64,000 nt of DNA from Occultella glacieicola (GCF_004353825.1 NZ_SMNA01000011.1:1-64000), one strand, 5' to 3'; counted from the stretch's first letter, positions 17,033 to 52,073 are shown. Translations and numbers: made by a program. The notes: generated from the sequence alone by a model not told the origin.

Positions 17033-17039
17033 CGCCGAG

Positions 17040-20941: not shown

Positions 20942-20965
20942 GCAACAAGTGGCAACCGCTTGCCG
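20942..20965. promoter_or_regulatory. Operator in the divergent lacI/isomerase promoter
   Basis: TGGCAACCGCTTGCCG (20950-20965) with an extra GCAAC 10 bp upstream. Confidence 0.7.
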
Positions 20966-21063
20966 TCCGGGTGGGTCGCTGACTGAATGGAGGAACCGGA
21001 CGCTGGCGCGCCCCGACGTCGACGTCCCGACCGAACCGCCACCCGAACCAGGAGCGATGACCC

Positions 21064-21891: not shown

Positions 21892-21925
21892 GCGGCCACG
21901 CACGATCTATCGACTGGAGAAACCT

Positions 21926-22954: not shown

Positions 22955-23090
22955 GGGCGACGCGGAACTGAGACGGTCGCGCCCCGGCGCGGTCCGCGTG
23001 CCACGATCTAGACCAACCGCCCACACCCTCCCCGACGCGGCGTGTCGGGCCGATCCGAACCTCACCCACACACCCGGAAGGACACCCACA

Positions 23091-33213: not shown

Positions 33214-35694
33214 ATGGACGACACAGACACCGGCACCGGCGGCATCCAGGGCACCCGCGGCCCTTCGAATTCGGCCGTGGCGCTCGCGTCCCGCTTGCAC
33301 CTGCCCCTCGGTCACCTGCTGGGTGCGTCGCTGGACGACAAGCTGATCGCCCTCGAGGCGCTGACCAAGTCCATCACGTGCGCCGACCCGATCGACGAAG
33401 CCGACCGGTACGGGGCCACTTTCCTGGGCCAGGCGGCGCTCCGGGCCCACTTGATCTCGGAGTCCCTGACCGGTGCCCAGCTCGACTGGATGGGTCTCGA
33501 GGAAGAGGCCGGCACCTGGGATCCCTCGCGGGGATTCCGCACCTACCCCCACTTCGTCGCGAAGACGTTCGGCATCTCCGGCGCCAACGCTCGCCGTCTG
33601 GTCACGCTGGCCAAGGGTCTCCGCAACAGCCTGCCCGCGACCCGGCGGCGCCTGCGCGCCGGGCAGATCGGCGTCGATCAGGCACAGATCCTGCTCAAGG
33701 CCATCGCCACCGAGGCCACCGCCGAGTCCCTCCAACTACCCTCCAGCCCGGCCGAGGCCACGTCCACGGGGTGCGCGAGCAGTGCGGACACCACCGGCAC
33801 GGCGCCCGCGACGACGGATACCGAGCCGGGCACTGGCGCAAAGGACACCACGGAGCCGGGCGCCGGTCCGGACGGAACCGATGATGTCGCCGAGCCGGAC
33901 GACGCTCCCGTGGCCGACGCTGCCGACGGTGACATATCCGGCGCCGACCCGGCTGACGACCGCCGTCGGGCCGACGGAACTACCGAGAGGCGGGCGCCGA
34001 CGGTCGAGGAACTCCTGCTTGATCACGCCGCCATGCGCTCCCCCGAGGACCTGCGCAAACTCGTCGATCACTATGTCGCCGTCGCAGATCCGGACGCCAC
34101 CGACAAGGCTCACCGGCAGGCCGCCGACCGCGAGTACCTCAGCGTCGACCGCACCCTGGGCGGTTACAACGTGGCCGGGTTCCTGACGATCGAACACGGT
34201 CAGTACATCCGCACCGCCCTCGAGTCCGTGATGGGGCCGCCCGCGGCCGGCGAGACCCGGACCGCCGCCCAGCGGCGCGCCCAGGCCCTCGCAGACCTCG
34301 CCCACACCGCCCTCGACCAGGGCAAGGTCGGCACGTCGGCCTCAGTGCGCCCCCATGTGGGCGTCCTGATCAGCACGCCCGAGTTCCTCGACCTCGTCCG
34401 CAGCACCGAAGCCGCCGAGGCGGCGGGCGGAGTCGGCCGAGGTCCCGCTGCAGGCCCGGAGACGATCGCCGACCCCCTGCCCGGGCTGGCGCCCACCGCC
34501 GACCCGATCATCGACAACCCTCCTCCGGGCGCGGCTCAGACAGGCGCGACGCCGGCGGTGCCCGGTCCGGCGGTGCCCGGTCCGGCGGTGCCCGGCCCAG
34601 TGGTGCCCGGTCTAGCGGTGCCCGGTCCGGCGGTGCCCGGCCCAGTGGTGCCCGGTCTAGCGGTGCCCGGTCCGGCGGTGCCCGGTCCGGCGGTGCCCGG
34701 TCTAGCGGTGCCCGGTCCGGCGGTGCCCGGTCCAGTGGTGCCCGGTCCCTTGACCGCGGATTCAGGCGCCGCTGCCGACCCCGAGCCTGGCCCCGACGCG
34801 CCCGCGTCATCTCCCGAGCAGCACACCGGCGTCGGTTCGGACGAACCGGCCTCGCACGAGCCCCCGAACGCCACCGGTGGACCCGCGGCACCATCCGGGG
34901 AACCCAGCCCCTGCGATGGGACGGCTCCGCCCACCCGCCGAACGGGCGTCACCGGGTCGCCGAGTCGACCCACTGGCACCGCTGTGCCTGCCACGTCGAC
35001 CACCGACGCCAGCACCGCCACGCCCACCATGCCGACCACTGACGCCACCGGCGCCAACTCGGCCACGTCGCCCTGCAGACCGCCGAGCGACGCCACCGGC
35101 ACCGCCCTGCCCACCACGCCGACCACCGACGCCAGCACCGCCACGCCGCCCATCGACGCCACCGGCACCGCCACGCCGCCCACCACCGACGCCACCCTGC
35201 CGCTTGGATCCGTCGCCCAGACGAGGGGCAGCGCCATCAGTTCCACCGGGCGGGACTGGGCCGCTCTCCTGGCCTCCGGTCCCGCGACGTTCATCGACAA
35301 CACCGGCCCCGTCCCCCGCGACCTGCTCGAGCGCATGATCAACTGCCACGGGGAGATCTACCGCATCATCTTCGGGCCCGACAACGAAGTCCTCAACCAC
35401 GGTCGCGCCCACCGCCTCTTCACGGCCCACCAACGCCGCGCCCTGGTCGCCCGCGACCGCCACTGCGTCCACCTCGACTGCACCGCCCCGCCGGAACGCT
35501 GCGAGTCCCACCACGGCGCCCGGGCGTTCGCCGACGGCGGCAACACCGACCTGCACGACGGCTGCCTCCTCTGCTACCACCACCACGCCTGGGTGCACGC
35601 CCACAACATCACCATGAGGAGAATCAACGGGACCTGGCACTTCTACAAGCCCGACGGCACCGAGATCCGACCCACCAAGCCGCCCTGGAACTGA
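33214..35694 (+). CDS. DUF222 + HNH endonuclease-signature protein (13E12-repeat-like family)
   Basis: RTAAQRRAQALADL, RPHV, HGRAHRLFTAHQRRALVARDRHC, CESHH, GGNTD, LLCYHHH; GGAGG RBS. Confidence 0.88.
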   Translation: MDDTDTGTGGIQGTRGPSNSAVALASRLHLPLGHLLGASLDDKLIALEALTKSITCADPIDEADRYGATFLGQAALRAHLISESLTGAQLDWMGLEEEAGTWDPSRGFRTYPHFVAKTFGISGANARRLVTLAKGLRNSLPATRRRLRAGQIGVDQAQILLKAIATEATAESLQLPSSPAEATSTGCASSADTTGTAPATTDTEPGTGAKDTTEPGAGPDGTDDVAEPDDAPVADAADGDISGADPADDRRRADGTTERRAPTVEELLLDHAAMRSPEDLRKLVDHYVAVADPDATDKAHRQAADREYLSVDRTLGGYNVAGFLTIEHGQYIRTALESVMGPPAAGETRTAAQRRAQALADLAHTALDQGKVGTSASVRPHVGVLISTPEFLDLVRSTEAAEAAGGVGRGPAAGPETIADPLPGLAPTADPIIDNPPPGAAQTGATPAVPGPAVPGPAVPGPVVPGLAVPGPAVPGPVVPGLAVPGPAVPGPAVPGLAVPGPAVPGPVVPGPLTADSGAAADPEPGPDAPASSPEQHTGVGSDEPASHEPPNATGGPAAPSGEPSPCDGTAPPTRRTGVTGSPSRPTGTAVPATSTTDASTATPTMPTTDATGANSATSPCRPPSDATGTALPTTPTTDASTATPPIDATGTATPPTTDATLPLGSVAQTRGSAISSTGRDWAALLASGPATFIDNTGPVPRDLLERMINCHGEIYRIIFGPDNEVLNHGRAHRLFTAHQRRALVARDRHCVHLDCTAPPERCESHHGARAFADGGNTDLHDGCLLCYHHHAWVHAHNITMRRINGTWHFYKPDGTEIRPTKPPWN
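34552..34748. repeat. 15-bp coding VNTR, 13 x VPG(P/L)(A/V)
   Basis: GCGGTGCCCGGTCCG and variants in tandem. Confidence 0.95.
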
Positions 35695-38062: not shown

Positions 38063-40651
38063 CTACCCGGGGACCCGCACCGACTGCCCGGTGCTCAGCC
38101 GGACCGGGATGTCCATCCGGGTACCGCCGAGCACGAGGACGTCGACGGAGAGCTCCCCGCTCAGGCACCGCAGCTCGTATCCCCCATGCCGTTCGCGCAC
38201 GTCGCCCCAGCCGCGGTCGGTCAGCACCGGCCAGGCCCCACCGGCGGGTGGTGCCGCCACGGTGAGCGTGCCGACGGTCGCGTCCCAGTCGTGCCCGGTG
38301 AGCGCATCGAGAACGCTCCAGCCGGACAAGGCCCTCACATAGTGGTCGCCGCACTCGATCTGGTTGTACGGGTTCCGGCGCCGCCCGTCGTACCGGTCAC
38401 GGAGCCCACGCAGCACCGCGTCGGCCTCCTCGGTCAGCCCCTCCATGATCAGGTGCGCTGCGACCTGCCCCTCGGTGCCGGTCCACACCTCGTCGCAGTA
38501 CTGGGTCGGCACGTCCGGCCGCCCACCGCTGGGCCAGGTGCACATCAGGAGCCCGGTGTCGTCGCCGTCGGCGAACACCCGATCGGTGTTCTCGAAGTCG
38601 GCGAAGCCGACGCGCAGGTTGTGCCGCACCACGGACCGCAGCGCGGTGCGCACGTGCTCGGCGGGGAGGAGGTGCCCGAGGCCGAGCAGGTGCGCCCACC
38701 ACTGCCCGATCAACTGGTCGCCCAGGCACCCGGACTCCCACTGGAACTTCCGCGGGTCGCCCTCCTCGAGCACCTGCACGTAGTACTCGCCGTTGAACAG
38801 CGCCGCGTCGTAGGCGGCGCTGCCTCGCTCGAACCACTCGCGCCACCGATCGGCGACGTCGGAGCGCCCCACGAGCCGGGCCAACTCCTCGCCGGCCCGC
38901 AGAGCCGCCAGCCACAGCGTGCCCATGAACGGGTTCAGCCCGGCCAGGTCGATGTCATGGGTGGACGGCTGGATCCCGTGCAGCATCCCGGTCCCGTCGG
39001 CGTCCCAGGTCCGGGCCACGTACTCGACCAGGCGTTCCACGTTCGGCCAGTACCGCTCCAGCCACGCCGATCCGGCGCCGCCACGCACCTCCCGGTAGGT
39101 CTTGAGCACCGTGCCGAGCATGCCGTCCAGCGCGGGCTGCTCGGGGCCGCCGATCGGCCGGTCCCACAACTGCGGGAGGTAGGTCGGCGAGATGACCCGG
39201 TGCGGGATGAAGCCCGCCGGTGCCTGCATCACGTCGAACTCACACTCGCGCATGTCCCGCTCGATCTGTGGGAACAGCCGGGCGATGCCCTGGGCGTAGT
39301 TGTACACGTGGGTGCAGTTCAGCGGGCAGGAGCCGCCCACCTCGCCGCCCCACATGGTCGTCGACGCACCGAGCACGCCCTCGAACCCGAAGAAGTGCCC
39401 GTCGGCCGCCCGGAAGAATGTCGGGCTGCGCACGATCGCGGCCTGCGCCGCGAGATGCTCGACGGCGTCGCTCGCCAGTGCGCTGCCGCGCAGCATCGTG
39501 GTCCAGGCCCGGGAGTCGGCCTCAAGGTCCGCCCACTGGCTCCGGACCCGGTCGGCGACCGCCTCCGCGTCGGGGTACACGGTGGCGTAGTGGTTGCCGA
39601 GCCAGAACCGGCTCGGCCCCCACTCGGGCCGGGACCCGCCGAACTGGACGAAGTTCACGTACCGGTTCGGGAAGTGCCAGGCGAGCGCGAACCGCACGGT
39701 CACGCTCCGGCCCGGGTCCACCGAGAAGTGCGCGGCCAGCCCACCGTTCCAGGTGGACCCCTCGGGGCTGGCTCCCGAGTGCGCCCGCACCCCGTTCGGC
39801 TGCAGATCCGCCGTCGTCGGTGCCGTCGCCCAGTCGGCCGGACCGAACGGCTGCCGCCCGCGCAGGAAGTCGAGGAACTGCCGCGGGTGCGTCCACTGGG
39901 GCAGCGCGGAGGCCTCGGAGGTGTCGGCTGCCAGGACCATCTGCCCGGCGCCGGGCTCCTCCGGAGCGAGACCATGGTTCTCCAGGATCAGGTCGGTCCA
40001 TCCGTCCCGGCGGCGGACCCGGTTCGTGTTGCCGCCGTAGCCGGGTGCCCGGACGCCGTCGGGCGCGAGTGTCCCGTCGGCGCCGACGGCGTTCTGCACC
40101 GCCCCGCCGAGCCACCCGTGCACGGGCGTGACGTCGGTGTTCGTGATCGTGAAGGTGAACATGGCCACCGGCAGGCTGCTGCGGTCCAGGTCGAGGGGCA
40201 CCATCGGGGTGAACGCCTCGAGGCTGATCCGCACCGGGAGACCGTCGTCGTGGTAGTCGACGCGACCGAACGGATAGGTGCCCGTGAAGGTCGTGGCCTG
40301 GACGCCGTCGGCCTCCCTCAGCAGTTCCCGCTGCCAGCGCGGCACCTCGTCGTCGGTGACCAGCGGGGTGCTGGTGGTGCCCGGCTCGGGCGGTGGTGCC
40401 TGCAGCACCCGGACCGCGTCGAACGGCGGGTCCCACTGCGAGACCCGAACGGCGAAGAACGAGTACGGCAGGTCACCGCGGTGGTTGCCGATGTTGTGCA
40501 GCTGCCACTGCCGCAGCCCACCGTCCGCACCGAGTGCGAGGTTGCCGGTGCCGATGCCGCCGAGCGGCATCGCCACGTGCGGGCCCTCGGTGTGCGGGAT
40601 CGAGCGGGCGACGGCGGAGGTCGCCTCCGCGTGGGCGCGTGCGTCAGTCAT
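38063..40651 (-). CDS. GH116-family glycoside hydrolase (candidate exo-beta-D-arabinofuranosidase)
   Basis: MPLGGIGTG, FEG...CPLNCTHV, STHD, DQLIGQW, EVWTG, ECGDHY; no signal peptide; specificity inferred from context. Confidence 0.88.
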   Translation of the reverse strand: MTDARAHAEATSAVARSIPHTEGPHVAMPLGGIGTGNLALGADGGLRQWQLHNIGNHRGDLPYSFFAVRVSQWDPPFDAVRVLQAPPPEPGTTSTPLVTDDEVPRWQRELLREADGVQATTFTGTYPFGRVDYHDDGLPVRISLEAFTPMVPLDLDRSSLPVAMFTFTITNTDVTPVHGWLGGAVQNAVGADGTLAPDGVRAPGYGGNTNRVRRRDGWTDLILENHGLAPEEPGAGQMVLAADTSEASALPQWTHPRQFLDFLRGRQPFGPADWATAPTTADLQPNGVRAHSGASPEGSTWNGGLAAHFSVDPGRSVTVRFALAWHFPNRYVNFVQFGGSRPEWGPSRFWLGNHYATVYPDAEAVADRVRSQWADLEADSRAWTTMLRGSALASDAVEHLAAQAAIVRSPTFFRAADGHFFGFEGVLGASTTMWGGEVGGSCPLNCTHVYNYAQGIARLFPQIERDMRECEFDVMQAPAGFIPHRVISPTYLPQLWDRPIGGPEQPALDGMLGTVLKTYREVRGGAGSAWLERYWPNVERLVEYVARTWDADGTGMLHGIQPSTHDIDLAGLNPFMGTLWLAALRAGEELARLVGRSDVADRWREWFERGSAAYDAALFNGEYYVQVLEEGDPRKFQWESGCLGDQLIGQWWAHLLGLGHLLPAEHVRTALRSVVRHNLRVGFADFENTDRVFADGDDTGLLMCTWPSGGRPDVPTQYCDEVWTGTEGQVAAHLIMEGLTEEADAVLRGLRDRYDGRRRNPYNQIECGDHYVRALSGWSVLDALTGHDWDATVGTLTVAAPPAGGAWPVLTDRGWGDVRERHGGYELRCLSGELSVDVLVLGGTRMDIPVRLSTGQSVRVPG

Positions 40652-40683
40652 CGGTGCCGTTCGTCGTGTGTCATGTGATCAGC

Positions 40684-41604
40684 TCACTTGATCCCGCTGA
40701 TCCGGATGCCGCTGATGATGTAGCGCTGGAAGATCAGGAACAGCACGATCACGGGGGTGGCGGCGAGCGTGGACCCGGCGAGCAGCAGCCCGTACTCGAT
40801 GCGCCGCTCGGACCGGAACGTGGCCAGGTACTGCTGGATCTGCGTCAGTGCCGAGTCCGGTTCGGTGATCGTCATGATCGGCCAGACGTACGCGTTCCAG
40901 AAGGCCAGGAACGAGGTGATCCCGACCACCACGAACACCGGCTTGGACATCGGCAGGAAGATCGCCGTGAAGATCCGCCACCGGTCCGCGCCGTCGATGA
41001 GCGCGGCCTCCTCGATCGAGGTCGGGATGCCCAGGTAGAACTGCCGGATGAAGAAGATGTGCACCGCGGCGGCCGCGCCGGGAACCACCAGGACCGCGAG
41101 CGTGTTCAGCATGCCCATCCGGGTCACCACGATGTAGGAGGTGAGCAGGATGGCCATCCCAGGGATGAACATCGTCATCAGGACCGCCACCCAGATGGTC
41201 CGCTTGAACGCGAACTCCAGCCGCGCGAACGCGTACGCGGCCATCGAGTTCACGGTCAGGCTCAGCGCCGCGAACAGCAGCGCCCCGCCGAAGGAGACCC
41301 CGACGGCCCGCAGGAACTGGGGGTCGGAGGCGATCTCGACGTAGTTCTGCGGCTGCCAGACGTCCGGGAAGAACTGGAACGGTGAGCTGACCACCTCGTT
41401 GCGGGCCTTGAACCCCGAGATCGCCATCCACGCCAGCGGGAACAGAGCGGCGAGGAAGATGAGCGCCGAGAACACGTAGCGCAGCACCGTCCCACCCGGC
41501 CCGGTGGCGCGGGCCGAGCGCCGCCGGCGGTGCGCGGCGGCGGGGGTCGGTGAGGTGAGTTCCCGGGTGCCGTCGGTGAGGACGATCGGTGCGTTCGCGG
41601 CCAT
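40684..41604 (-). CDS. Carbohydrate ABC permease (MalG-like)
   Basis: AAYAFARL, EEAALIDGA EAA loop, WNAYVWP, QRYIISG. Confidence 0.93.
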   Translation of the reverse strand: MAANAPIVLTDGTRELTSPTPAAAHRRRRSARATGPGGTVLRYVFSALIFLAALFPLAWMAISGFKARNEVVSSPFQFFPDVWQPQNYVEIASDPQFLRAVGVSFGGALLFAALSLTVNSMAAYAFARLEFAFKRTIWVAVLMTMFIPGMAILLTSYIVVTRMGMLNTLAVLVVPGAAAAVHIFFIRQFYLGIPTSIEEAALIDGADRWRIFTAIFLPMSKPVFVVVGITSFLAFWNAYVWPIMTITEPDSALTQIQQYLATFRSERRIEYGLLLAGSTLAATPVIVLFLIFQRYIISGIRISGIK

Positions 41605-42539
41605 CAGCCGTCCACCGCCTTCTCGGAGTTGATCACCCTGAAGATCACCGCGGACAGCCCGCCGAGGACCACGAACAGCAACAGCGCCGCAGCGATCGAG
41701 TAGCCGACGGTGACGTCGTTGGTGAAGCGCAGGAAGATGTGCAGGTTCGGGAGCAGGGTGGACTGGGTCGGTCCGCCCTGGGTCATGATCAGCGGCAGCT
41801 CGTACTGCTGGATCGTGGCCACGAAGCTGGTCACGAGCAGGTACAGGCCGATGTTGCGCATCAGCGGGATCGTGATGAACACGGTCCGTTGCCACCACTT
41901 CGCCCCGTCGAGCTCGGCCGACTCGAAGTAGCTCTCCGGGATGTCCAGCAGCCCGGCGAGCATGATCAGCGAGGCGAGCCCGAGGCCCAGCCAGATCGCC
42001 GGTGCGGTCAGCGCCAGCAGTGCCGTGCTCGCACTGCCCAGCCACGGCTGGTTCTCGAACCCGACCAGGCTGATCAGCCAGTTCAGCAGGCCCTGCCGGT
42101 ACTCGTAGATCAGCACGAACACGATCGAGGCGATCACCCCGGAGATCACCGTCGGGATGTAGATGCTCACCTTGAGCCATGTCGCCATCCGCGACCCCAT
42201 GGTCTTGACCAGGTTCGCGAACGCGAAAGCCAGGATCATGATCCCCGGGACCACGATCACGGAGAACCGCAGCCCCCGGCCGATCGAGGCCCAGAACACC
42301 GGGTCGGCGAGCACCAGGCGGAAGTTGCGCAGCCCGACGAACGTCGACTCCGTGTAGAAGCTCCAGTTGAAGAAGCTCACGTACCACGCATAGACGAGCG
42401 GCCACAGCACGAAGATCCCGAGCAGGACCAGCGCCGGCGCGAGCATCAGGAAGGCGATCCTGTTGTCACGGTGGGCGGGTTTGGGGCGGCGGCGCGGCCT
42501 GCTCGAGGTCGGTCGCGCCGGTGCCTGGATAGTCGTCAT
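41604..42539 (-). CDS. Carbohydrate ABC permease (MalF-like)
   Basis: FVGLRNF, ESAELDGA EAA loop, ITIPLMR, MTQGGP. Confidence 0.93.
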   Translation of the reverse strand: MTTIQAPARPTSSRPRRRPKPAHRDNRIAFLMLAPALVLLGIFVLWPLVYAWYVSFFNWSFYTESTFVGLRNFRLVLADPVFWASIGRGLRFSVIVVPGIMILAFAFANLVKTMGSRMATWLKVSIYIPTVISGVIASIVFVLIYEYRQGLLNWLISLVGFENQPWLGSASTALLALTAPAIWLGLGLASLIMLAGLLDIPESYFESAELDGAKWWQRTVFITIPLMRNIGLYLLVTSFVATIQQYELPLIMTQGGPTQSTLLPNLHIFLRFTNDVTVGYSIAAALLLFVVLGGLSAVIFRVINSEKAVDG

Positions 42540-42606
42540 CTCATCACCTTCGAGGTGTCCACGGCTGTCGCCGTCGACTCGGTCGGGTCCACGCAGCGGT
42601 CGGAAC

Positions 42607-42641
42607 CGGGTGGGTGCACCCTGGCCGGGTACACCCACCCG
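42607..42641 (-). other. Intercistronic stem-loop after the binding-protein gene
   Basis: CGGGTGGGTG...CACCCACCCG perfect 10-bp arms; usual position for an mRNA-stabilising hairpin. Confidence 0.65.
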
Positions 42642-42647
42642 CTCCGG

Positions 42648-43994
42648 TCAGCTACCGGTGCCCGCCAACTGGGAGTTGGCGATCTCGGTGTTGATCTTCT
42701 CGTTCGCCGCGGCGAGCGCCTCCTCCACCGCGGTGCCCTGCATGGCGGCCTCGATCGCCTCGCCCATGGCCAGGCTGACGTTCCAGGGGTAGGCCGGCTC
42801 CGGCTGGGCGAACGGCACGATCTCCTCCTGGATGACGGCGTTCCACGGGTTCACGCTGTCCACGTCCGGGAGCGCGCTGATCGCGTCCGCGACGGACACC
42901 CGCGGCGAGACCTTCGAGAACTGGGTGGCCTCGAAGAACGGCACCACGTTCTCGGTGTCACCGCCGAGCGCCCACTCGATGAACCCGGCCGCCTCGGCCG
43001 ACCGCTCGCTGTTGCCGTCGACCACCCAGGTCCACCCGCCGAGCGTCGCCGTGGTCTGGCCGCTCTGCCCGTCGAAGGACGGCATCGGGGCGACGGCCAC
43101 GTTCGGCACGAGGTCCGGGTAGTCGTTGAGCAACTGGCTGGCGGCCCAGGAGCCGTTCGCCATCATCGCGTACTGGCCGTCGCCGAACGTGGCCGAGTCG
43201 GGGTAGCCCACGCCGTCCGCGGGCGGCAGCGCGCCGCTGGCGAACAGGTCCTGGAACGCCTGCAGCAGCGGCGCGTAGTCCGTGGTCGCCATGGCCTCGG
43301 ACCAGTCGTCGCTGATCGGCAGGTGCCCTGCCACGTTCCACTGGTAGCCCCAGGTGGACCAGGACATGTCCGGCGCGTTCTGGGCGAGCCGGATCCCGAA
43401 CACCTCGTCGTTGGTCAGTGCCTCGGCGTCCGCGACCAGCTCGTCCCAGGTGGTCGGCGGCCCGTCGATGCCGGCCGCCTCGAACAGGTCGGTCCGGTAC
43501 CAGAGCACCGCGGAAGGCTCCACGAGCATCGGGTAGGCGTACTCCTCGCCGTCGACCGTGACCGAGCCGCGGACGTTCTCCTGCAGGTCGTCCCAGGCCT
43601 CGGCGCCGATCAGGTCCGAGAGCGGCGTGATCTCGCTGGCGAGCGCCGCGGCCCGGACGCCGCCGTAGTTCATGGTGCGGATGTCCGGGGCGTTCCCGGC
43701 GGCCTGGGCGGCCGTCATCCGCTGCTCCCAGGCGTCCCCGGGCACCGCGGTGAGGGTGATGTGCACCTCGTCCTGGGACTCGTTGTAGGCGTCCACGACG
43801 CCCTCGTACCATTCGTTCTCCTCATCGGTGAACGAGGTCTGCCAGAAGGTCACCTCGGTGACCCCCTCGGGAACCTCCTCGCCGGGCTCCGAACCGCCGG
43901 TTCCGCCGTCGGGCGTTCCGCTGCAGGCGGCGAGCACCAGAGCGGTGGCGGCCACGACACCGAGGCCGCCGGTCAATCTGCGTGTCGAACGCAT
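42648..43994 (-). CDS. Carbohydrate ABC substrate-binding lipoprotein
   Basis: LAAC lipobox, VTFWQ, APDI, LWYRTDLFEAAG, PTTWDEL, LGGWTW; AAGGAGG RBS. Confidence 0.93.
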   Translation of the reverse strand: MRSTRRLTGGLGVVAATALVLAACSGTPDGGTGGSEPGEEVPEGVTEVTFWQTSFTDEENEWYEGVVDAYNESQDEVHITLTAVPGDAWEQRMTAAQAAGNAPDIRTMNYGGVRAAALASEITPLSDLIGAEAWDDLQENVRGSVTVDGEEYAYPMLVEPSAVLWYRTDLFEAAGIDGPPTTWDELVADAEALTNDEVFGIRLAQNAPDMSWSTWGYQWNVAGHLPISDDWSEAMATTDYAPLLQAFQDLFASGALPPADGVGYPDSATFGDGQYAMMANGSWAASQLLNDYPDLVPNVAVAPMPSFDGQSGQTTATLGGWTWVVDGNSERSAEAAGFIEWALGGDTENVVPFFEATQFSKVSPRVSVADAISALPDVDSVNPWNAVIQEEIVPFAQPEPAYPWNVSLAMGEAIEAAMQGTAVEEALAAANEKINTEIANSQLAGTGS

Positions 43995-44039
43995 CTCATC
44001 CTCCTTGATGATCGGCTCCGCGAGGAGCCTCGGTTGGTT

Positions 44040-45188
44040 TCATGCGGGCGCCGGCACGAGCTCGGCGCTGTACCAGAACACGTTGTAGGGACCCCAGATC
44101 GAGAGCGTGAAGTAGATCGTGAGGCCGTCATCGCTGACGTATCGAGGATTCAGGTAGGGGCTGTACAGCCCCGGTGTCTCGGCCTGGGTGGTGAGCACGT
44201 GCGGCTCGCTCCACGGCCCCCAGGGGGTGATGCCCTCGGCGAGCACCGCGTCCCCGTCCGTGGAGTAGGTCATCAGCCACCGGTCGAGGGTGGGGCTGTG
44301 GACCACGGACAGCTCGCCGATGGTCCCCTCCAGGACGGTCTGCGCGTCCGCCATCGACTCCGACCAGCGGGGGTCGCCGTCATCGTCGGTGCCGGCGAAG
44401 TACCGGTAGGCGGACAGGTCCTCGACGGCCTCGGTGGTGGCCGGGACCTTCATCAGCTGCACCCCACCGAACCGGCCGGACGGGATCGACCAGAAGTACA
44501 GGAAGTCCTCCCCGTCCTCGGTGACCTCGGCGACCGAGACCTGAACGAAGTTCGAGTCACCGGGCCACTGCGGCGCCGGCAGCGTCTCCCAGCTGGCGCC
44601 GCCGTCGGTGCTGCGGGCCAGGCCCGCGTGGTTCGCGTCCCACTGGCCCGGCTCGCCCCAGTGCCGTACCGACATGTACTGCAGGTAGAGCGTCTCGCCG
44701 ACGGCGAAGCCGTAGGTCGGGATCTTCGTCACCTCGCCCCCGGCGTCGTTGTGGTCGTGCTCGCCGGGCACCACCTCGAGGGCGAGCCCGATGTCGTCGA
44801 GCAGCCAGCCGTCGAAGGTGAGCCCGTCGCTCGGATCCTCGTCGGTGGTGTAGGCGACCGCGTTCGAGCGCCAATTGCCGCCCTGGCCGCCGACCGCGTC
44901 GGGGTCACGGGTGCCGAACGTGTCGCCGAACACGAGGTAGGTCGTGTCCCCGACGTTGAACATCGAGCCGAGGTCGGTGCCGGCAACCGCGACGCTCGCG
45001 GTGTCGTTGACTCCGGAGTCCGGCCCGGTGAGCTGGGTGATCTGCGTGACGTTCGTGACGCCGTCGAGCACGAACGGGCGGTCGGGGTCGGTGTTCACGT
45101 CGGTGCCTCCTCCGGTCGAGCCGCACGCGACCAGCGCCACCGAGGACACTGTGGCGGCGCAGATCATCGCCATCCTCGCCCGCCTCAT
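44040..45188 (-). CDS. DUF4185 (GH183) lipoprotein, candidate endo-D-arabinanase
   Basis: LVAC lipobox, GTDLG, FGDTFG, WRSN, IPT, GELSV, GPWS, LYSPY, YNV. Confidence 0.85.
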   Translation of the reverse strand: MRRARMAMICAATVSSVALVACGSTGGGTDVNTDPDRPFVLDGVTNVTQITQLTGPDSGVNDTASVAVAGTDLGSMFNVGDTTYLVFGDTFGTRDPDAVGGQGGNWRSNAVAYTTDEDPSDGLTFDGWLLDDIGLALEVVPGEHDHNDAGGEVTKIPTYGFAVGETLYLQYMSVRHWGEPGQWDANHAGLARSTDGGASWETLPAPQWPGDSNFVQVSVAEVTEDGEDFLYFWSIPSGRFGGVQLMKVPATTEAVEDLSAYRYFAGTDDDGDPRWSESMADAQTVLEGTIGELSVVHSPTLDRWLMTYSTDGDAVLAEGITPWGPWSEPHVLTTQAETPGLYSPYLNPRYVSDDGLTIYFTLSIWGPYNVFWYSAELVPAPA

Positions 45189-46285
45189 CCCAGCCTCGGC
45201 AGCCGTTGACCGACCGGCGCCAGCGTGAGGTGCTCGGCCGGGGTCTCCTGGTACCAGTACGCGGTCGAGGACAGGTCGTCGCTCCGCCGGTTCGCGTGCC
45301 CGTGCTCGATGGTGACCCGGATCGACGTGGTGAACGGCACCGGGTCCTCGATGTGGAACCGGTACGTCGAGACCTGACCGGACCAGTTCTCCCCGCCGGC
45401 CAGGGTGATGCCGTGGTACGGCGCGCTGTAGCTCTCCGACGGGCACCAGGCCGTGTTGAAGTAGTCCTCGGTGCCGGTGCCGTGCAGGCTCGGTGGCCAC
45501 GTCTCGCCGTCGACGAAGATCATGTCGTCGCCCTCGCCGTACCAGTTCCACTCGGCGGTGTGGCGCAGGTTCGTCACGTTCAGGACGCAGCCGACGTAGT
45601 GCCCGCGGCCGGATGTCTGCAGGATCGTGTAGTTGCCCTCGCCGGTCAGGTTCGGCCCCTCGAACAGCAGCTCGGAGTTCGTCAGGCCTGCCGCAGTGGT
45701 CTCGTCCAGGCCGGCCGTCGGGTTCTCCCGGTTCCAGGACGCGTGGAACCGCCCGAGTCCGTCCTCGAGGGCGTCGAACGCGTCGTAGTCGATGTAGTAG
45801 TAGAACCAGAGCACCTCCTCGCTGCACTCGCTGATGATCTCGAATCGGGCGCGGGTCGCGAACGGCATATGGAAGAACGAGTTCAGGGCCTTGCCGTCCT
45901 GCGGGCTCATCTGCAGCGGCGCCGACGCGTAGTTCACGGTGCGCCCGTGCCCCACCCCGAAGAAGTCCCCGAGCGGCACCAGCACCGACGGGTGCGGCGA
46001 GTCGTCCCAGTAGACGGCGAGCACCAGCTTGCGCAGGAAGTCGCGGTCGGCGCTGTCCGGCGTCGGCGCGTCCCGAGGCGCCACCGTCATCCAGATGTGG
46101 TTGACCGAGCCGGCGCCACGCAGGTCGGCCAGCTCGACCCGCTCGCCGGGGTGCAGCGTGAGCCGGTCCTCGTTGCCGCCGGACCGGTCCCAACTGGACG
46201 CGCGCAGGCGCCGGTGCGTGCGCAGCCGCGGCAGGTCGCGCAGGCTGCTGCCGTACGGGCCGTAACCCCCGGTCGCGATCGCCAT
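45185..46285 (-). CDS. DUF2961 (GH172) glycoside hydrolase
   Basis: SSWDRSGGNED, GAGSVNHIWMT, VPLGDFFG, MPF, WYGEGDD, GTGTEDYF, YRFHIEDP, IEHGH; ATG after GAGAGGA. Confidence 0.9.
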   Translation of the reverse strand: MAIATGGYGPYGSSLRDLPRLRTHRRLRASSWDRSGGNEDRLTLHPGERVELADLRGAGSVNHIWMTVAPRDAPTPDSADRDFLRKLVLAVYWDDSPHPSVLVPLGDFFGVGHGRTVNYASAPLQMSPQDGKALNSFFHMPFATRARFEIISECSEEVLWFYYYIDYDAFDALEDGLGRFHASWNRENPTAGLDETTAAGLTNSELLFEGPNLTGEGNYTILQTSGRGHYVGCVLNVTNLRHTAEWNWYGEGDDMIFVDGETWPPSLHGTGTEDYFNTAWCPSESYSAPYHGITLAGGENWSGQVSTYRFHIEDPVPFTTSIRVTIEHGHANRRSDDLSSTAYWYQETPAEHLTLAPVGQRLPRLG

Positions 46286-46327
46286 CTGATTCCTCTCCAT
46301 CGAGTCCATGTCCCGCACCCGCCCGGC

Positions 46328-47254
46328 TCAGGTCCGCGCCGGTGTGCCGGCCAGGTCGAGCACCTCGGCCCGGCGCGGCGCGGACGCCGCACCCCCGCGT
46401 CGGGTCACGGAGACGGCGGCCGCGGCGTTCGCGAAGGCCACCGCCTCGGTGATCGGGTCGCCGGCGGCCAGGCGGGCGCCCAGGCTGCCGCAGAACGCGT
46501 CCCCCGCCCCGATCGTGTCCAGCACGTCGACCCGGAGCCCGGGCACGTGGACCTCGCCCCGGCCCGGTTCGAGGACGAGCGCACCGTCCGGTCCGAGGGT
46601 GACGATCAGCGCGTAGGACCGGCCCGCGGCCGCCCGGCGGGCCACGTCCAGGACCAGCTCGTCGGCGCGGGCCCCGGTCAGCTGTCGCAGCTCCGGCTCG
46701 TTCGGGACGAGGACGTCGACGGCGTCCGCCAGGTCCGCCGGGACGGTCGCCGCCGGCGCCGGGTTCAGCACGACGCGTACGCCCGCGGCCCGGGCGATCC
46801 GGGCGGCCCGCACGGTGGCGTCCATCGGCAGTTCGAGTTGCAGGAGCAGCACGGTCGCGGACTCGATCCGGGCACGGGCCGCCTCGACGTCGGCGACCGT
46901 GACGGCCAGGTTCGCCCGGGGGATCACGATGATCGAGTTCTGGCCGGTCTCGTCCAGCACCGGCAGGCCGACGCCGGTGCCGTGCTCGGGATCGCTGCTC
47001 ACGTCGGTGGCACCGATCCCCTCGGCGCCGAGGAACTCGCGGAACTCGGCCGCGAACAGGTCCTCGCCGAGGCGCCCGATCACCGCGGTCGTGGCGCCCG
47101 CACGCGCCGCCGCGACCGCCTGGTTGAAGCCCTTGCCGCCGACGAACGTGGCGAACTGGCTCCCGATCAGGGTCTCACCCGGGCCGGGGCGCCGCGGTGC
47201 GGTGGCCACCAGGTCGTACATGAAGGAGGCCAGGACACAGACGTCGGCGCTCAC
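46328..47254 (-). CDS. PfkB-family ribokinase-like sugar kinase
   Basis: GGKGFNQAVAAAR, GQNSI, LQLE, NPAPA, PNEPE, DTIGAGDAF. Confidence 0.9.
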   Translation of the reverse strand: MSADVCVLASFMYDLVATAPRRPGPGETLIGSQFATFVGGKGFNQAVAAARAGATTAVIGRLGEDLFAAEFREFLGAEGIGATDVSSDPEHGTGVGLPVLDETGQNSIIVIPRANLAVTVADVEAARARIESATVLLLQLELPMDATVRAARIARAAGVRVVLNPAPAATVPADLADAVDVLVPNEPELRQLTGARADELVLDVARRAAAGRSYALIVTLGPDGALVLEPGRGEVHVPGLRVDVLDTIGAGDAFCGSLGARLAAGDPITEAVAFANAAAAVSVTRRGGAASAPRRAEVLDLAGTPART

Positions 47255-47874
47255 GAGGACACCTGCCGTGAGCCGGGCCCGAGCAGCTTCTGTCCGAGCG
47301 CCCCGCTCGGATGGCGTTCGCCGAACTGCTCCGAGGTGAACCCGGAGAGCGTCATCAGCGCGATCGCGAGCGCGTCGCCCACGGCGAGCGTCGACACCGC
47401 CGAGGCCGTCGGGGCGAGCCCGAGCGGATCCGCCTCACCGTCCACGGAGATGTCGAGGGTCACCCTCGCGAAGAACGCCAGGGGCGAGGCCGGGTCCCGG
47501 GTCATGGCGATGATCGGCACGCCCCACGCCGTCAGCATGTTCGCGAACTCGCACACCTCCACGGTCTCGCCGGAGTTCGAGATCAGGATCGCGACGTCAC
47601 CGGGCGTGGCGGCGCCGGAGTCGCCGTGCAGGGCCTCGCCGGCGTGGACGAACTGGGCCGGGGTGCCGGTGCTGGAGAGCGTCGCCGCGATCTTGCGGGC
47701 GATGTGGCCGGACTTGCCGAGACCGGAGACCAGGACCCGCCCGTGGGAGGCCCGGATCAGGGTGATCGCTGCCCCCAGGGTGGGCTCGACGAGGTCCGCC
47801 GTGCGGGCGATCGAGCGGGACTCGATCAGCATGGCGGAGCGGGCTGCGGCGAGGGCGTCGGCGATGGTGACCAC
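47251..47874 (-). CDS. KpsF/GutQ-type SIS-domain isomerase without CBS domains (candidate arabinose-5-phosphate isomerase)
   Basis: GLGKSGHIARKIAATLSSTGTP, EALHGD, SNSGET, GLAPTAS, GDALA, HPSGALG; ends right after the SIS domain. Confidence 0.88.
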   Translation of the reverse strand: MVTIADALAAARSAMLIESRSIARTADLVEPTLGAAITLIRASHGRVLVSGLGKSGHIARKIAATLSSTGTPAQFVHAGEALHGDSGAATPGDVAILISNSGETVEVCEFANMLTAWGVPIIAMTRDPASPLAFFARVTLDISVDGEADPLGLAPTASAVSTLAVGDALAIALMTLSGFTSEQFGERHPSGALGQKLLGPGSRQVSS

Positions 47875-47937
47875 GGTGTCTCTCAGTGCCTCTCAGTGCG
47901 TCGGTGCATGAGTGTGACCAGGTGTCGATCAGTGGCG

Positions 47938-47963
47938 GTAAACGATTACTGGTAATCGATTAC
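47938..47963. promoter_or_regulatory. Tandem LacI-type operators
   Basis: GTAAACGATTAC (47938-47949) and perfect palindrome GTAATCGATTAC (47952-47963). Confidence 0.8.
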
Positions 47964-48066
47964 TCGAGGGTAGGCGGACGACCTGCGGATGTCAACGCCT
48001 CCGGTGCCGCTCGTGGATAACGATCCGCTAACCGACCGCTCGGGCGGCAGCCGCGGACGGCCGGGT

Positions 48067-49137
48067 TCAGAGGATCTCGAGCTGGTCCACGGTCGGAGTC
48101 GGCGGGCGGGCCGCACTCGGCGCATCCAGGTAGAACAGCGCGGTCGAGGCGATGTCGTCGCGCAGCGGGAGGTACCGGCCGCCGGTGCGCCAGCCGAGGG
48201 CCTGGATGTCCACGGTGAGGTCGGTCTCGAAGTGGATCGGGTCCGGCACGTGCCAGCGGTACATGCCGAACCGTTGCTGGGAGGCGTAGAGCCCGTCCGG
48301 ACGCAGTACCTGGTGCAGGCCGAGATAGGGGGTCGTGAACTCCGTGTAGCCCTGCCCGGGCACGTCGAAGTTCCACGCTCCCCCGATGTAGTCCTCGGTG
48401 CCCGTGCCACAGATCGTCGGGTACGGCTCCGCCTGCGCCGCGTCCCCGTCGAGGTAGAACTTGATCTCGCCCTCACCCCACCACCCGGTGGAGTTCACAC
48501 CCCAGGCGAGATAGGTGCCGACGTACTGGCCGCGGCCGCGGACGTCGTCGAGCAGCACGTGCGTGGCTCGGTCCGGCAGCGGGTTGCTGCGCCGCCACTG
48601 CGCGTGCAGCCGCCCGGTGCCGACTTCGTCGCCGCCGTCGGTATAGGTGACCTGGAAGTACACGATCACGGGCTCGGGGCCGAGGTTCTCGATGCTCAGC
48701 CGGGCACCGTCGGCGAACGGCATCGGCCAGTACGAGTTGAAGCCTCCGTGCGGGTTCGCGGCCACCATCGCCGAGCTGAGCTGAGCGAACGCGCCCCAAC
48801 CCTGACCGAAGAAGTCCCCGACCGGCACCTCGATCGCGGGTTCGGACGCCCCATCCCAGTACCCGCGCAGCAGCAGCCGGCGCCAGTTGTCGGTGTGGGT
48901 GGTGAGCCAGAGGTGGGTGATCCGCCCGGACCCGGTGATCCGGGCCAGGTCGTACGTCTGCCCGGGCTCGATCCGCACGCTCGGGGAGACCTTCCAGCCG
49001 ACGCCCAGGTCGCGGGCCGCCTCGGCACCGGTGCCCTCGGTGGCCCGGCCACCGCCGCCCTTGGCGCCGTCGGGGTTCTCCGGGCTGATCGAACGGGTCC
49101 GCACGTCGCGGAGCGCGGCCAGGTCGCTGTTGAACAT
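48067..49137 (-). CDS. Second DUF2961 (GH172) glycoside hydrolase
   Basis: RSISPENPDGAKG, GWKVSP, GRITHLWLT, VPVGDFFG, NSYWPMPF, WWGEGE, GTGTEDY, YRWHVPDP. Confidence 0.9.
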   Translation of the reverse strand: MFNSDLAALRDVRTRSISPENPDGAKGGGGRATEGTGAEAARDLGVGWKVSPSVRIEPGQTYDLARITGSGRITHLWLTTHTDNWRRLLLRGYWDGASEPAIEVPVGDFFGQGWGAFAQLSSAMVAANPHGGFNSYWPMPFADGARLSIENLGPEPVIVYFQVTYTDGGDEVGTGRLHAQWRRSNPLPDRATHVLLDDVRGRGQYVGTYLAWGVNSTGWWGEGEIKFYLDGDAAQAEPYPTICGTGTEDYIGGAWNFDVPGQGYTEFTTPYLGLHQVLRPDGLYASQQRFGMYRWHVPDPIHFETDLTVDIQALGWRTGGRYLPLRDDIASTALFYLDAPSAARPPTPTVDQLEIL

Positions 49138-49181
49138 GAGGCCTCACATCTGTGTCGGGAGCGGTCGAGGGGGATCGGATC

Positions 49182-50198
49182 TCAGGCGGCCGAGGTAGTA
49201 CCCCGGACGAGCAGGTGCGGCGGCAGCAACAGGTGGACCGGTTCGCTGGCCGGGTCCGCGGCGAGGGCCACCAGACGCTCAGCGGCCCGGGTGCCCATCT
49301 CCTCGACCGGCTGGGCCACCAGCGTCACCGCCGGGCTGACCATCTGGGTCCAGCGATCGTCGTCGACTCCCACGAGCGAGATCTCGTCCGGCATCCGCAG
49401 CCCGCTGGCCTGCACACCCCGGTAGGCGCCGGTGGTCAGCGGTCCGTTCATGGCGAAGATCGCGTCCGGGTGGTTGCGCGGGTCCGCGAGCGCGGCCCGC
49501 ACCGCGGCCTCGGCGTCGTCGATCTTGAGGTCGGTGCGCACCATCCGGGCCGGGTCGAGGGTCAGCCCGGCGCCGGTGAGCGCCTGCCGCACGCCCTGGA
49601 GGCGGTCCTCCGTGGTGCTCACGCCGGAGGGGCCCGCCAGGCACATGATGTCGCGGTGGCCGAGCTCGAGCAGGTGCTCGGTGGCGAGCCGGCCGGCCTC
49701 GACGTTGTCCAACAGGATCGTGTCCCCGGTGAAGTCGTGCACGCGCCGGTCGACCACGACGGTCGGCACCTGCGCGGCGAGCAGCGCGCTCAGGTCGGAC
49801 GTCGCCTCGGAGGTCACCGAGACCACCACGCCGGCCATCCGCTGGGCCACGGCCGTGGTCAGGTAGCTGCGCTCCCGGTCGAGTTGCTCATCGGTATTGC
49901 AGAGCATCACCGAGATCCCCGAGCGCACGGCGACATGTTCGACCGCTGTCACCAGCGAGGTGAAGAACGGGTTCTGCACATCGGAGACGATCGCGGCCCA
50001 GACGTCCGCCCGCTGGCGCCGCAGGGCCCGGCCGTTCGGGTTCGGGACGTACCGGGTGACCTCGGCGGCGCGCCGCACCCGGGCGGCCAGCTCGGGGTCG
50101 ACGGAGCCCAGGCCGTTGAGCACCCGGGACACGGTGGCCGTGGAGACCCCGGCCTCCCGCGCGACGTCCGTGATCCGCACCGCCCGCTGCCCGTTCAT
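49182..50198 (-). CDS. LacI-family regulator of the arabinan locus
   Basis: ITDVAREAGVSTATVSRVLN, YVPNPNGRAL, LVGVDD; ATGA overlap with the upstream gene. Confidence 0.92.
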   Translation of the reverse strand: MNGQRAVRITDVAREAGVSTATVSRVLNGLGSVDPELAARVRRAAEVTRYVPNPNGRALRRQRADVWAAIVSDVQNPFFTSLVTAVEHVAVRSGISVMLCNTDEQLDRERSYLTTAVAQRMAGVVVSVTSEATSDLSALLAAQVPTVVVDRRVHDFTGDTILLDNVEAGRLATEHLLELGHRDIMCLAGPSGVSTTEDRLQGVRQALTGAGLTLDPARMVRTDLKIDDAEAAVRAALADPRNHPDAIFAMNGPLTTGAYRGVQASGLRMPDEISLVGVDDDRWTQMVSPAVTLVAQPVEEMGTRAAERLVALAADPASEPVHLLLPPHLLVRGTTSAA

Positions 50199-52045
50199 GG
50201 CGCGATCCTCGCACCCTCGCCGTAGACCGCCAGCTCCGACACCGACGTGTAGCCCGCCCAGCCGCCCGCGCGACCTCCCAGCCGGACGCCGGTGCTGATC
50301 TGGGCCGGCACGGTGAATGTGTACGTCCTGGTGCCGGTGGCGGTCCAGTCCGCCGGGTAGGGCGGTTCCACGACGGCCGGCACCTCCACCCAGTCCGCGC
50401 CGCGGCGCACCTGCACCCGGGGCGGCGCGTCGAACCAGCCGGCGCCGTAGTCGTGTGGCCCGGAGGTGAACTCGAGTCGCTCGATCCGCACCGGCTCCGG
50501 CCAGGTGTATCCCCAGTACTCGGCGTCCTTGCGCAGCCCGTTCCAGGAGTCCTCGGCCCGGTCGGTGCTGCCGTCGTTGAGCACCTCGATGCGTCCGGAG
50601 CGGCAGGCGGTGGCGATCGCGCGGACGCCGGGCGCGGTGGCGAGATTGCCGGCGTCGGGCTCGGAGACGGTGTCGGCGCCGCGGGCCGGCGGTGCGGTCC
50701 GCGCGGCCAGGGCCGCCGGGTCCGTGCGGGGCATCGGGTCCAGTCGCAGCGGCCGCAGCGAGAAGTGGTAGCTCGAGCCGCCGTGGGTGGAGGCTCCGAC
50801 GAACCAGTTCGACTGGACCCACGCGTCCCGGCCGTCCTCACTGAGGAACTTGCTCGGGATCGTGGTGGCGTACCCGCCGTGCCGCGGCTCGGCGGACCGC
50901 GGCCCGGACCAGGGGAACGGGCCGAAATCATGGCTCAGGAACGGGCGCCAGGGGCCCCACGGCGTCGGCGACTCGTAGAACTCGAACGTGAACTCGGTCC
51001 AGGACGAGTACAGGTACCGGTCCAGGCCCGGGTTGTAGACGATCCCGCCCTGGGCGAGCACAGAGCCGGGGACCGGTGCCGGTGCCATCGGCACCGGCAC
51101 CGCGGTACCGACCCGGCGGGTGTCGGTCAGGACCGGGACGCGGTCGGTGAGGACGGACGAGAAGGTGGGGACGTCGTCGGGCCCGGTGCCGGCGAAGAAC
51201 TCCCAGGTGGAGCGGTCCAGGACGGAGGCCGCGGGGACCCGGGCCAGGTACAGGTCCTGCGGGTCCGGCACGACGCCCGAGTAGGAGGTGCGCCAGTTGT
51301 GGTCGAGGCCGTAGGCGTAGACGAAGGCGGCCGGGTCCGGCTCACCCGGGCCGACGGTGCCGGCGGTGGCGCGGAGCACGGCGGCGCGGCGGTTGCTCTG
51401 CCCGAAATCGAGGAACATGATCGTGGTGAACTCGTCGGTGAACATGGCCCGCTCGGGTGCGGTCCAGGTGCGCCCGTAGTCGCGGGAGCACACGACGCCG
51501 GCGGCGGGCGCGGTGTTGAACGTGTCCGGCGAGGCCCCGCAGCGCAGGTCCTGCACGGCCAGGTAAAGCTCGTCACGGCCGTCCCCGTCGCCGTCCACGG
51601 CGACCATGCCGGTCGGCTTGCTGTTGAACCGCTCCGGGTCGGTCCAGACCGGGGCGACCTCCCGGCCCGCCGCCAGCCGTTGCCCGGTCAGGCCCGTACG
51701 CGGGTCCCCGTCGACGCGGTTGATCACGAGGTCGGACCACGGACCGTCCGAGAAGCCGAGCCCGTCCCCGCACGCGGCATAGAGGGCGCCGTCGTCGGCC
51801 CAGGCGCTCGGCCAGAGGTCGCCGTCGCTCGGCGAGGAGACGCCGGCCGCGTAGGACACCGCGGCGACCGCGAAGAAGTCCGACGGCGGGGGCACGGTCC
51901 CGGGGGCACCGTCGCCGGGGCGGTGGCTGCCCCGGGCGTCGCGCGCGCCGCCTGTGCCGACTGTGCCGACGGTGCCACCCGCGCCGCCTGTGTCACCTGT
52001 GCCGAACAAGCCGGGCACGCCGGGGAACTCCTCGGGCTGGGTCAC
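50195..52045 (-). CDS. DUF4185-like beta-propeller glycosidase with a C-terminal beta-sandwich-like domain
   Basis: SDGDLWPSAWADDG, GDGLGF, KPTGM, LARVP, WEFFAG, YNPGLDRY, ESPTPWGPW, GYATTIPSK; no signal peptide; family call tentative. Confidence 0.65.
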   Translation of the reverse strand: MTQPEEFPGVPGLFGTGDTGGAGGTVGTVGTGGARDARGSHRPGDGAPGTVPPPSDFFAVAAVSYAAGVSSPSDGDLWPSAWADDGALYAACGDGLGFSDGPWSDLVINRVDGDPRTGLTGQRLAAGREVAPVWTDPERFNSKPTGMVAVDGDGDGRDELYLAVQDLRCGASPDTFNTAPAAGVVCSRDYGRTWTAPERAMFTDEFTTIMFLDFGQSNRRAAVLRATAGTVGPGEPDPAAFVYAYGLDHNWRTSYSGVVPDPQDLYLARVPAASVLDRSTWEFFAGTGPDDVPTFSSVLTDRVPVLTDTRRVGTAVPVPMAPAPVPGSVLAQGGIVYNPGLDRYLYSSWTEFTFEFYESPTPWGPWRPFLSHDFGPFPWSGPRSAEPRHGGYATTIPSKFLSEDGRDAWVQSNWFVGASTHGGSSYHFSLRPLRLDPMPRTDPAALAARTAPPARGADTVSEPDAGNLATAPGVRAIATACRSGRIEVLNDGSTDRAEDSWNGLRKDAEYWGYTWPEPVRIERLEFTSGPHDYGAGWFDAPPRVQVRRGADWVEVPAVVEPPYPADWTATGTRTYTFTVPAQISTGVRLGGRAGGWAGYTSVSELAVYGEGARIAP

Positions 52046-52061: not shown

Positions 52062-52073
52062 GTAATCGATTAC
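52062..52073. promoter_or_regulatory. LacI-type operator
   Basis: GTAATCGATTAC, identical to 47952-47963, 16 bp upstream of the GTG. Confidence 0.8.

Follow-up and report, generated by a model that had tools for sequence, protein, structure and literature searches.

Organisation of the locus

The window analysed here is a stretch of 64,000 nucleotides from Occultella glacieicola (GCF_004353825.1, NZ_SMNA01000011.1:1-64000). Within this window, a pair of genes for a SIS protein and a kinase heads a same-strand run that continues with genes for a GH172 protein, a GH183 protein, a binding protein, two permeases, and a GH116 protein. On the 5' side of the pair lie another GH172 gene, a LacI-family regulator gene, and a gene for a GH183-like protein. 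The features are as follows.

38063-40651, minus strand: GH116 protein, homolog of the exo-beta-D-arabinofuranosidase ExoMA2 (PDB 8IC6, E 3.8e-126, versus 1e-33 for beta-glucosidases)
40684-43994, minus strand: oligosaccharide ABC importer, comprising a binding protein (42648-43994) and two permeases
44040-45188, minus strand: homolog of the GH183 endo-D-arabinanase EndoMA1 with a lipoprotein-like N-terminus (PF13810, E 2.6e-82; PDB 8HHV, E 8.3e-50)
45185-46318, minus strand: second GH172 protein, nearer the BACUNI/alphaFFase1/DgGH172c type
46328-47254, minus strand: ribokinase-fold kinase, 308 aa, predicted D-arabinose 5-kinase (from fold and pocket residues)
47251-47874, minus strand: SIS protein of the CBS-less arabinose-5-phosphate isomerase type, 207 aa (from KdsD-like residues, identity, and PDB matches)
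47938-47963, no strand: tandem 12-base palindromes 5' of the SIS gene, probable LacI-family operators (from shuffling and a genome scan)
48067-49137, minus strand: GH172 protein, close homolog of the exo-alpha-D-arabinofuranosidase ExoMA1 (PF11175; PDB 8IC8, E 1.8e-176)
49182-50198, minus strand: LacI-family regulator, start inferred
50195-52045, minus strand: distant DUF4185 (GH183-like) protein (PF13810, E 5.9e-8, below cut-off)
52062-52073, no strand: third copy of the palindrome, 5' of the unit of GH183-like, LacI, and GH172 genes

An earlier reading of the sequence alone had described the first two operon genes as encoding a CBS-less SIS protein and a ribokinase-like kinase that overlap by 4 bp. 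Both open reading frames were recovered in this arrangement on the minus strand, the four shared bases being GTGA, and the overlap likewise spans four bases, there ATGA, in three genomes of the same genus. The nearest named homologs are in Occultella (87% identity for the kinase and 82% for the SIS protein). The gene pair is real and conserved, and the function predicted for it below is well supported on comparative grounds. The gene set of a Microbacterium-type D-arabinan locus (GH183, GH172, GH116 subfamily 4, and an ABC importer) is present, with the GH116 subfamily assigned by the best PDB match alone. No gene for an ABC ATPase was found among the scanned ORFs of the locus (38063-52045); in actinobacteria, such importers usually draw on a shared ATPase whose gene lies at another site. 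A scan for sigma-70 promoters 5' of the SIS gene gave no match. The ribosome-binding site of the SIS gene carries a 10-base tandem duplication (window 47880-47900) that is absent from the three same-genus genomes.

The SIS protein has the residues of an arabinose-5-phosphate isomerase

In a profile search, the SIS protein showed a single SIS domain and no CBS match. Its best NCBIfam matches were GutQ, KpsF, and KdsD, every one of them under its cut-off (192 bits against 204 for TIGR00393), which is partly because these models span the CBS part. It thus has neither the C-terminal CBS pair nor a score above the curated cut-off of the KdsD/GutQ/KpsF type, and it fits the CBS-less subtype of arabinose-5-phosphate isomerase (API), with 5UQI and 2XHZ as best PDB matches. 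Sequence identity is 48% with Escherichia coli KdsD and 44% with the CBS-less API that strain CFT073 encodes. Equivalents of K59, E85, H88, E111, E152, and H193 (KdsD numbering), which we take to be the active-site residue set of KdsD, are all six present. Among 120 close homologs, K59, H88, E152, and H193 were found in all 120, E111 in 119, and E85 in 90, with Asp in the other 30. Thr and Asp stand at the positions of K59 and E85 in the Listeria SIS protein 3FXA and in three distant matches from related genomes, so that the API type can be distinguished. From these residues we predict that the protein interconverts arabinose 5-phosphate and ribulose 5-phosphate, in the catabolic direction.

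Fold and active-site residues are shared with KdsD, GutQ, KpsF, c3406 of CFT073, and the API of Clostridium tetani, the last of which is a known API from a Gram-positive bacterium (cited in PMC11301363). Two differences from these enzymes stand out in the surroundings of the gene: c3406 adjoins PTS and aminotransferase genes and no kinase gene, whereas the present SIS gene adjoins a kinase gene; and unlike the KdsD-type APIs, the present protein belongs to a genome without a detected Kdo pathway. Neither KdsA nor KdsB family members were found in this genome (23 contigs, 100% complete by markers), and its sole DAHP-synthase-family gene did not score on the KdsA model. A whole-genome search for a FucI-like isomerase with PF07881, PF02952, and a direct FucI-like query was equally without a match. 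The initial reading had listed genes for a fucose/arabinose isomerase, ribulokinase, aldolase, and Kdo synthesis as missing from the window; for FucI, KdsA, and KdsB this extends to the genome, but the window, of which selected ORFs were scanned, does hold an FGGY kinase gene (15461-17032), one of nine FGGY matches in the genome. It lies 30 kb from the pair, has a gluconokinase as its best match, and adjoins uronate genes. Ribulose 5-phosphate could be taken up by the products of three RpiB-family genes and Rpe.

The FGGY kinase gene belongs to a separate sugar-acid cluster (window 15461-24536) that also includes a fructuronate-reductase-like gene and genes for glucuronate isomerase, a LacI regulator, and 6-phosphogluconate dehydrogenase; the nickel-pincer cofactor genes larE and larB follow at 24540-26199. 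A long ORF at 33214-35694 has, by eye, a DUF222/HNH-type look and internal proline-rich repeats.

The kinase is a ribokinase fold with a remodelled sugar pocket

The kinase is a PfkB protein and scored highest on the ribokinase profile TIGR02152, where its 277 bits fall short of the cut-off of 300; on the fructokinase profile it scored 75 bits. Its structure model (pLDDT 96.5) has 1RKD as top fold match with a TM score of 0.92. The fold and the catalytic and anchoring residues (D16, N46, E143, and D255 in E. coli RbsK numbering) are shared with RbsK, its E. coli A98G variant, the Thermus A92G variant (PDB 8CQX), and DeoK. The kinase differs from RbsK and DeoK in a natural Gly98 combined with F13, M14, F45, P100, and R115, that is, in the substitutions I13F, N14M, A45F, A98G, I100P, and G115R relative to E. 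coli RbsK. These residues surround C2 of the sugar, and the ribose-facing lid residues N14, A98, and I100 are replaced by M, G, and P. PDB 8CQX had been considered as a wild-type ribokinase with Gly98 and was rejected as such, being the engineered Thermus mutant, of which the wild type (6ZNX) has Ala.

Identity is 41% to E. coli RbsK and 35% to a DeoK-type protein, and the kinase is neither closer to DeoK than to RbsK nor set in a deoxyribose gene context. A Met at the position of N14, a DeoK-associated feature, is present in the kinase as well; it is not diagnostic, since human ribokinase and the CFT073 gene product taken as deoxyribokinase have it too. The DeoK-type protein keeps A45, A98, and I100. 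Two UniRef names among the top kinase matches read deoxyribokinase, and the current database names are ribokinase or deoxyribokinase.

Among 119 close homologs of the kinase, G98 was present in 114, M14 in 118, and P100 in 118. The corresponding counts were three, one, and one in the 150 best representatives related to the ordinary ribokinase of the same genome, and none of these 150 had the combination of G98 with F13, M14, F45, P100, and R115. As both sets were defined by similarity to their query, these counts describe a family signature rather than a function. The ordinary ribokinases, of which the genome has two, have N14, A45, and A98. Both of their genes (L263 G000:C18 and L264 G000:C11) lie in ABC operons with ADP-ribosylglycohydrolase-family genes, and one adjoins a nucleoside hydrolase gene.

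Some of these positions have been related to substrate choice in E. coli RbsK. D-arabinose is the C2 epimer of ribose, and its 2-hydroxyl is faced by A98, I100, and I110 of RbsK (PMC9604405). In the same study, A98G raised kcat on D-arabinose 15-fold and lowered ribose activity, with a KM for arabinose that stayed very high for A98G alone; I100V brought no gain on arabinose, and N14 formed no bond to arabinose in simulation (PMC9604405). We therefore predict, from the pocket residues, that the kinase is a D-arabinose 5-kinase.

Probable exchange with a FucI-like isomerase behind an apparently shared operator

Two operator-like palindromes were found 64-89 bases 5' of the SIS gene, with no match in 100 shuffles. 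When up to one mismatch was allowed, the 12-base palindrome had only three sites in the 5.3-Mb genome, all at the locus, and the palindrome 5' of the SIS gene is kept in the same-genus genomes. By binding these sites, the local LacI protein probably keeps the pair repressed.

Among 61 related genomes, a SIS match of at least 64% identity occurred in 12, with the kinase gene directly downstream in every case and a GH172 gene next in 11 of them. The three distant SIS matches (37-40% identity) lack K59 and E85, two of them also E152, and have no kinase gene within 1.5 kb. From the order, 251 genomes were sampled evenly and searched with 5-12 candidates scored per genome; the kinase occurred in 8, SIS protein and kinase in 7, GH172 in 42, and a FucI-like protein in 24 by direct query (close matches) or 34 by PF02952. 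There was no overlap between the eight kinase-bearing genomes and either FucI-like set. A close GH172 (at least 350 bits against either GH172 of the window, a threshold chosen with the scores already known) was present in 24 genomes. The co-occurrence with GH172 that had been suggested as a check holds for the 7 of these that have the pair, but 14 use a FucI-like isomerase and 3 have neither; none has both. The remaining 18 GH172 genomes include two with a FucI-like protein and none with the pair. Exclusion between pair and FucI-like protein among the GH172 genomes gave a Fisher p of 3.5e-4, which overstates the case, as the seven pair-bearing genomes represent four genera.

In four genomes (G008, G024, G027, and G029), the pair is missing while LacI, GH172, binding-protein, and GH116 genes are all retained at the locus. 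The palindrome was found in exact form just 5' of a stand-alone FucI-like gene in G008, G024, G029, G020, and G150, and with one mismatch in G027; of 12 FucI-like loci checked, 5 had no palindrome and 1 only a distant copy. Genomes that lack the pair thus have the palindrome in front of FucI-like genes, so that a dedicated source of arabinose 5-phosphate is not needed for the regulon to work. We infer that the pair and the FucI-like gene are two unrelated solutions in one regulon slot, so that D-arabinan degraders would swap two unrelated two-step routes under an apparently shared operator.

In the six loci concerned (L250, L251, L252, L253, L254, and L257, from G008, G024, G029, G027, G020, and G150, respectively), the divergent FucI-like isomerase gene stands alone behind the palindrome. 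Such proteins score about 30-40 bits on PF02952 and were missed by blastp with E. coli FucI. A kinase to follow the FucI-like step was not located in G008, G024, and G029, where the best FGGY matches have 30-34% identity. In genome G211 (L161, C1:408001-428000), the signature kinase is accompanied by the palindrome, by genes for a LacI regulator and a monosaccharide ABC importer, and by a distant GH172 frame of great length; despite the full kinase signature, the genome gave no SIS, FSA, or FucI-like match. Three genomes with a close GH172 (G015, G079, and G102) showed neither route. In G015 (L156), genes for an FGGY kinase and an iron-containing dehydrogenase lie 5-8 kb from the GH172 gene, possibly a third route.

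The kinase family in wider searches

Among the 557 metagenome kinase loci that were confirmed, 80 were kept. The kinase gene is adjacent to a SIS gene in 34 of these 80, directly adjacent to a gene for an FSA-type aldolase in 14, and to both in none. Where M14 and G98 are present and the flank was long enough, a SIS gene is adjacent in 29 of 31 loci, as against 5 of 42 for other kinases. The 34 SIS-adjacent loci include an RbsD/FucU gene in 14 cases (11 nearer RbsD) and a gene for a DHDPS-family aldolase in 5, and several have monosaccharide ABC importers. An RbsD/FucU neighbour does not decide the substrate, as a pyranase serves any kinase that needs a furanose, ribose kinases included. A DeoC-like gene, searched with a single query, was found in 1 of the 80 metagenome loci and in none of 60 genome loci. 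GH172 occurred in the fetched flank of 2 of the 34 SIS-adjacent loci, many contigs being short, and the pair is not confined to arabinan loci.

In a phylum-wide sample of 401 genomes (E 1e-95, five candidates scored per genome), the kinase family was found in one, the window's own, and it is either rare or under-detected across the phylum. A plasmid search with the kinase returned 28 records, all below 60% identity, of which the annotated ones are called ribokinase. In a quick kinase tree of 91 rows, from which sequences with fewer than 230 aligned residues were excluded, SIS-linked and FSA-linked kinases cluster, not as single clades, with the outgroups on long branches; the order of events is not readable from this tree.

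Two lines were set aside. A search of genome contigs with the SIS protein was swamped by Gram-negative matches of the KdsD type. A SIS-kinase fusion (P0107) was rejected as support, since its SIS segment seems to be partly out of frame, and among longer proteins no SIS-kinase fusion was found at E 1e-50.

A probable kinase-first route for D-arabinose and its alternatives

Altogether, these comparisons are consistent with the view, which we consider likely, that D-arabinose is converted to arabinose 5-phosphate by the kinase and then to ribulose 5-phosphate by the SIS isomerase. The locus would serve to break down arabinan of the type found in mycobacterial cell walls. By analogy with the Microbacterium homologs, for which these steps have been demonstrated, GH183 would cut D-arabinan outside the cell, the ABC system would import the oligomers, and GH172 and GH116 would free D-arabinofuranose inside the cell. 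The PfkB kinase would then phosphorylate D-arabinose at O5 with ATP, and the CBS-less SIS protein would pass the resulting arabinose 5-phosphate, by the reaction known for KdsD-type enzymes, to ribulose 5-phosphate and the pentose phosphate pathway. The pair would thereby be an interchangeable alternative to the route of FucI-like isomerase and FGGY kinase. This order of steps had already been proposed from the sequence, and it gains comparative support from the pocket residues of the kinase, from intact API residues where no Kdo pathway was detected, from the exclusion of FucI-like genes together with the shared palindrome, and from the alternation of API and FSA genes beside the kinase gene.

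The claim of novelty, on the other hand, has to be narrowed. D-arabinokinase and phosphoarabinoisomerase were reportedly both purified by Volk in about 1960-62 from Propionibacterium pentosaceum, an actinobacterium; these are the same two reactions, described as activities only, so the chemistry is old. For D-arabinokinase (EC 2.7.1.54), which is defined by its activity of forming D-arabinose 5-phosphate from ATP and D-arabinose, we found no reference sequence. EC 2.7.1.54 still counted as an orphan when such activities were surveyed in 2007 (PMC1940265). Nor is the end point new for an arabinan locus: for the D-arabinan locus of Microbacterium arabinogalactanolyticum, which like the present one has GH183, GH172, GH116, and an ABC importer, conversion of D-arabinose to ribulose 5-phosphate via "a putative isomerase and kinase" was proposed by Shimokawa et al. 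in 2023 (PMC10509167), the accessible part of the text naming no families for the two. In locus L144, where the GH172 has a match of 814 bits to ExoMA1, there are genes for a FucI-like isomerase and an FGGY kinase, so that the published Microbacterium type is probably isomerase-first, in contrast to the kinase-first order predicted here with unrelated enzyme families. A predicted fucose isomerase is also part of Dysgonomonas PUL42 (PMC10115798), and the FucI-like isomerase of such FucI/FGGY routes was found neither in the present locus nor in its genome. In vitro, human ribokinase has been used to make arabinose 5-phosphate from D-arabinose (PMC11591822). The accessible parts of PMC3347535 and PMC4437456 hold nothing bearing on a kinase-first route, and we found no published gene assignment for one in a search that covered older and subscription literature thinly. 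What would be new is a predicted gene pair for the kinase-first route in a known type of locus.

Of the alternatives, the one that survives best is that the kinase is a divergent ribokinase or deoxyribokinase acting on D-ribose or 2-deoxyribose, and that the SIS protein has some other sugar phosphate as its substrate. The ribokinase profile as best match, the two deoxyribokinase names, the Met14 common to human ribokinase and the DeoK-type protein, and the presence of RbsD-like neighbours at 11 of the 34 metagenome loci with an adjacent SIS gene would all fit such a kinase. We nevertheless judge it improbable, given that A98G lowers ribose activity (PMC9604405), that two ordinary ribokinases and RpiB are already encoded in the genome, that a single-query search found DeoC-like genes so rarely near the kinase gene, and that the enzymes of the locus release D-arabinose; the exclusion of FucI-like genes would also be left unexplained.

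Regulatory roles have been ascribed to GutQ and to the C. tetani API, and the pair could likewise make or remove arabinose 5-phosphate as a LacI inducer while bulk carbon is handled by oxidation, reduction, or another route. G211, with kinase and operator and no isomerase, would agree with this, but the palindrome also precedes FucI-like genes where the pair is absent, and the way in which the pair and a catabolic isomerase exclude each other fits a role in flux, which makes an inducer function very unlikely. We give an equally low probability to a role in which the two enzymes handle another sugar freed at the locus, be it D-fructofuranose from the second GH172 or a capping sugar of lipoarabinomannan, and in which the SIS protein isomerises a hexose phosphate. 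In its favour, the GH172 directly downstream is nearer the alphaFFase1/BACUNI type than ExoMA1, and the CBS-less Listeria relative 3FXA is a glucose-6-phosphate isomerase. Against it, the Thr and Asp of 3FXA and the three distant SIS matches are replaced by API residues here, the kinase scores far higher on ribokinase than on fructokinase, and D-arabinose would be left without a route in the genome.

If the kinase-first reading is correct, an orphan enzyme activity would gain a gene family and a sequence signature, and "LPS-type" isomerases in bacteria without LPS would have a catabolic reason. It would also provide a natural D-arabinose 5-kinase for a weak step in the enzymatic synthesis of arabinonucleoside drugs, for which the best engineered ribokinase keeps a very high KM (PMC9604405).

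A possible arabinose 5-phosphate hub

In the 14 FSA-linked metagenome loci (L200, L202, L204, L211, L213, L218, L221, L225, L226, L229, L231, L233, L245, and L246), the aldolase gene directly follows the kinase gene, and in two more it lies within about 2 kb of it. All 16 FSA-like proteins found have a Gln and a Pro-Tyr motif, which presumably mark FSA and not transaldolase. Engineered pathways use FSA to join glycolaldehyde and glyceraldehyde 3-phosphate into arabinose 5-phosphate (PMC8208507, PMC13550131). That the SIS isomerase and FSA, which are unrelated and both accept arabinose 5-phosphate, alternate beside one kinase family supports this compound as the kinase product. The arrangement suggests that, in loci with the FSA-linked sister kinases, a pentose 5-phosphate is cleaved to glycolaldehyde and glyceraldehyde 3-phosphate.

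Kdo aldolase (EC 4.1.2.23) yields D-arabinose, and the DHDPS-family neighbours of the pair are possibly Kdo aldolases that supply this sugar. Like EC 2.7.1.54, EC 4.1.2.23 was tabulated among the orphan activities in 2007 (PMC1940265).

With somewhat less than even confidence, we tentatively propose that the orphan D-arabinose 5-kinase corresponds to the kinase family with F13, M/V14, F45, P100, R115, and, in most members, G98, and that this family marks a so far unrecognised catabolic hub at arabinose 5-phosphate with two exits and several inputs. The exits would be the CBS-less isomerase, leading to the pentose phosphate pathway, and the FSA-type aldolase, which would split arabinose 5-phosphate to glycolaldehyde and glyceraldehyde 3-phosphate and thereby have a natural function; the inputs would be D-arabinan and free D-arabinose and, where a DHDPS-family aldolase cleaves it, Kdo. 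The DHDPS-family genes near the pair lie on low-GC metagenome contigs (L172:10905-11822, L174, L178:10921-11790, L183:6645-7400, and L210).
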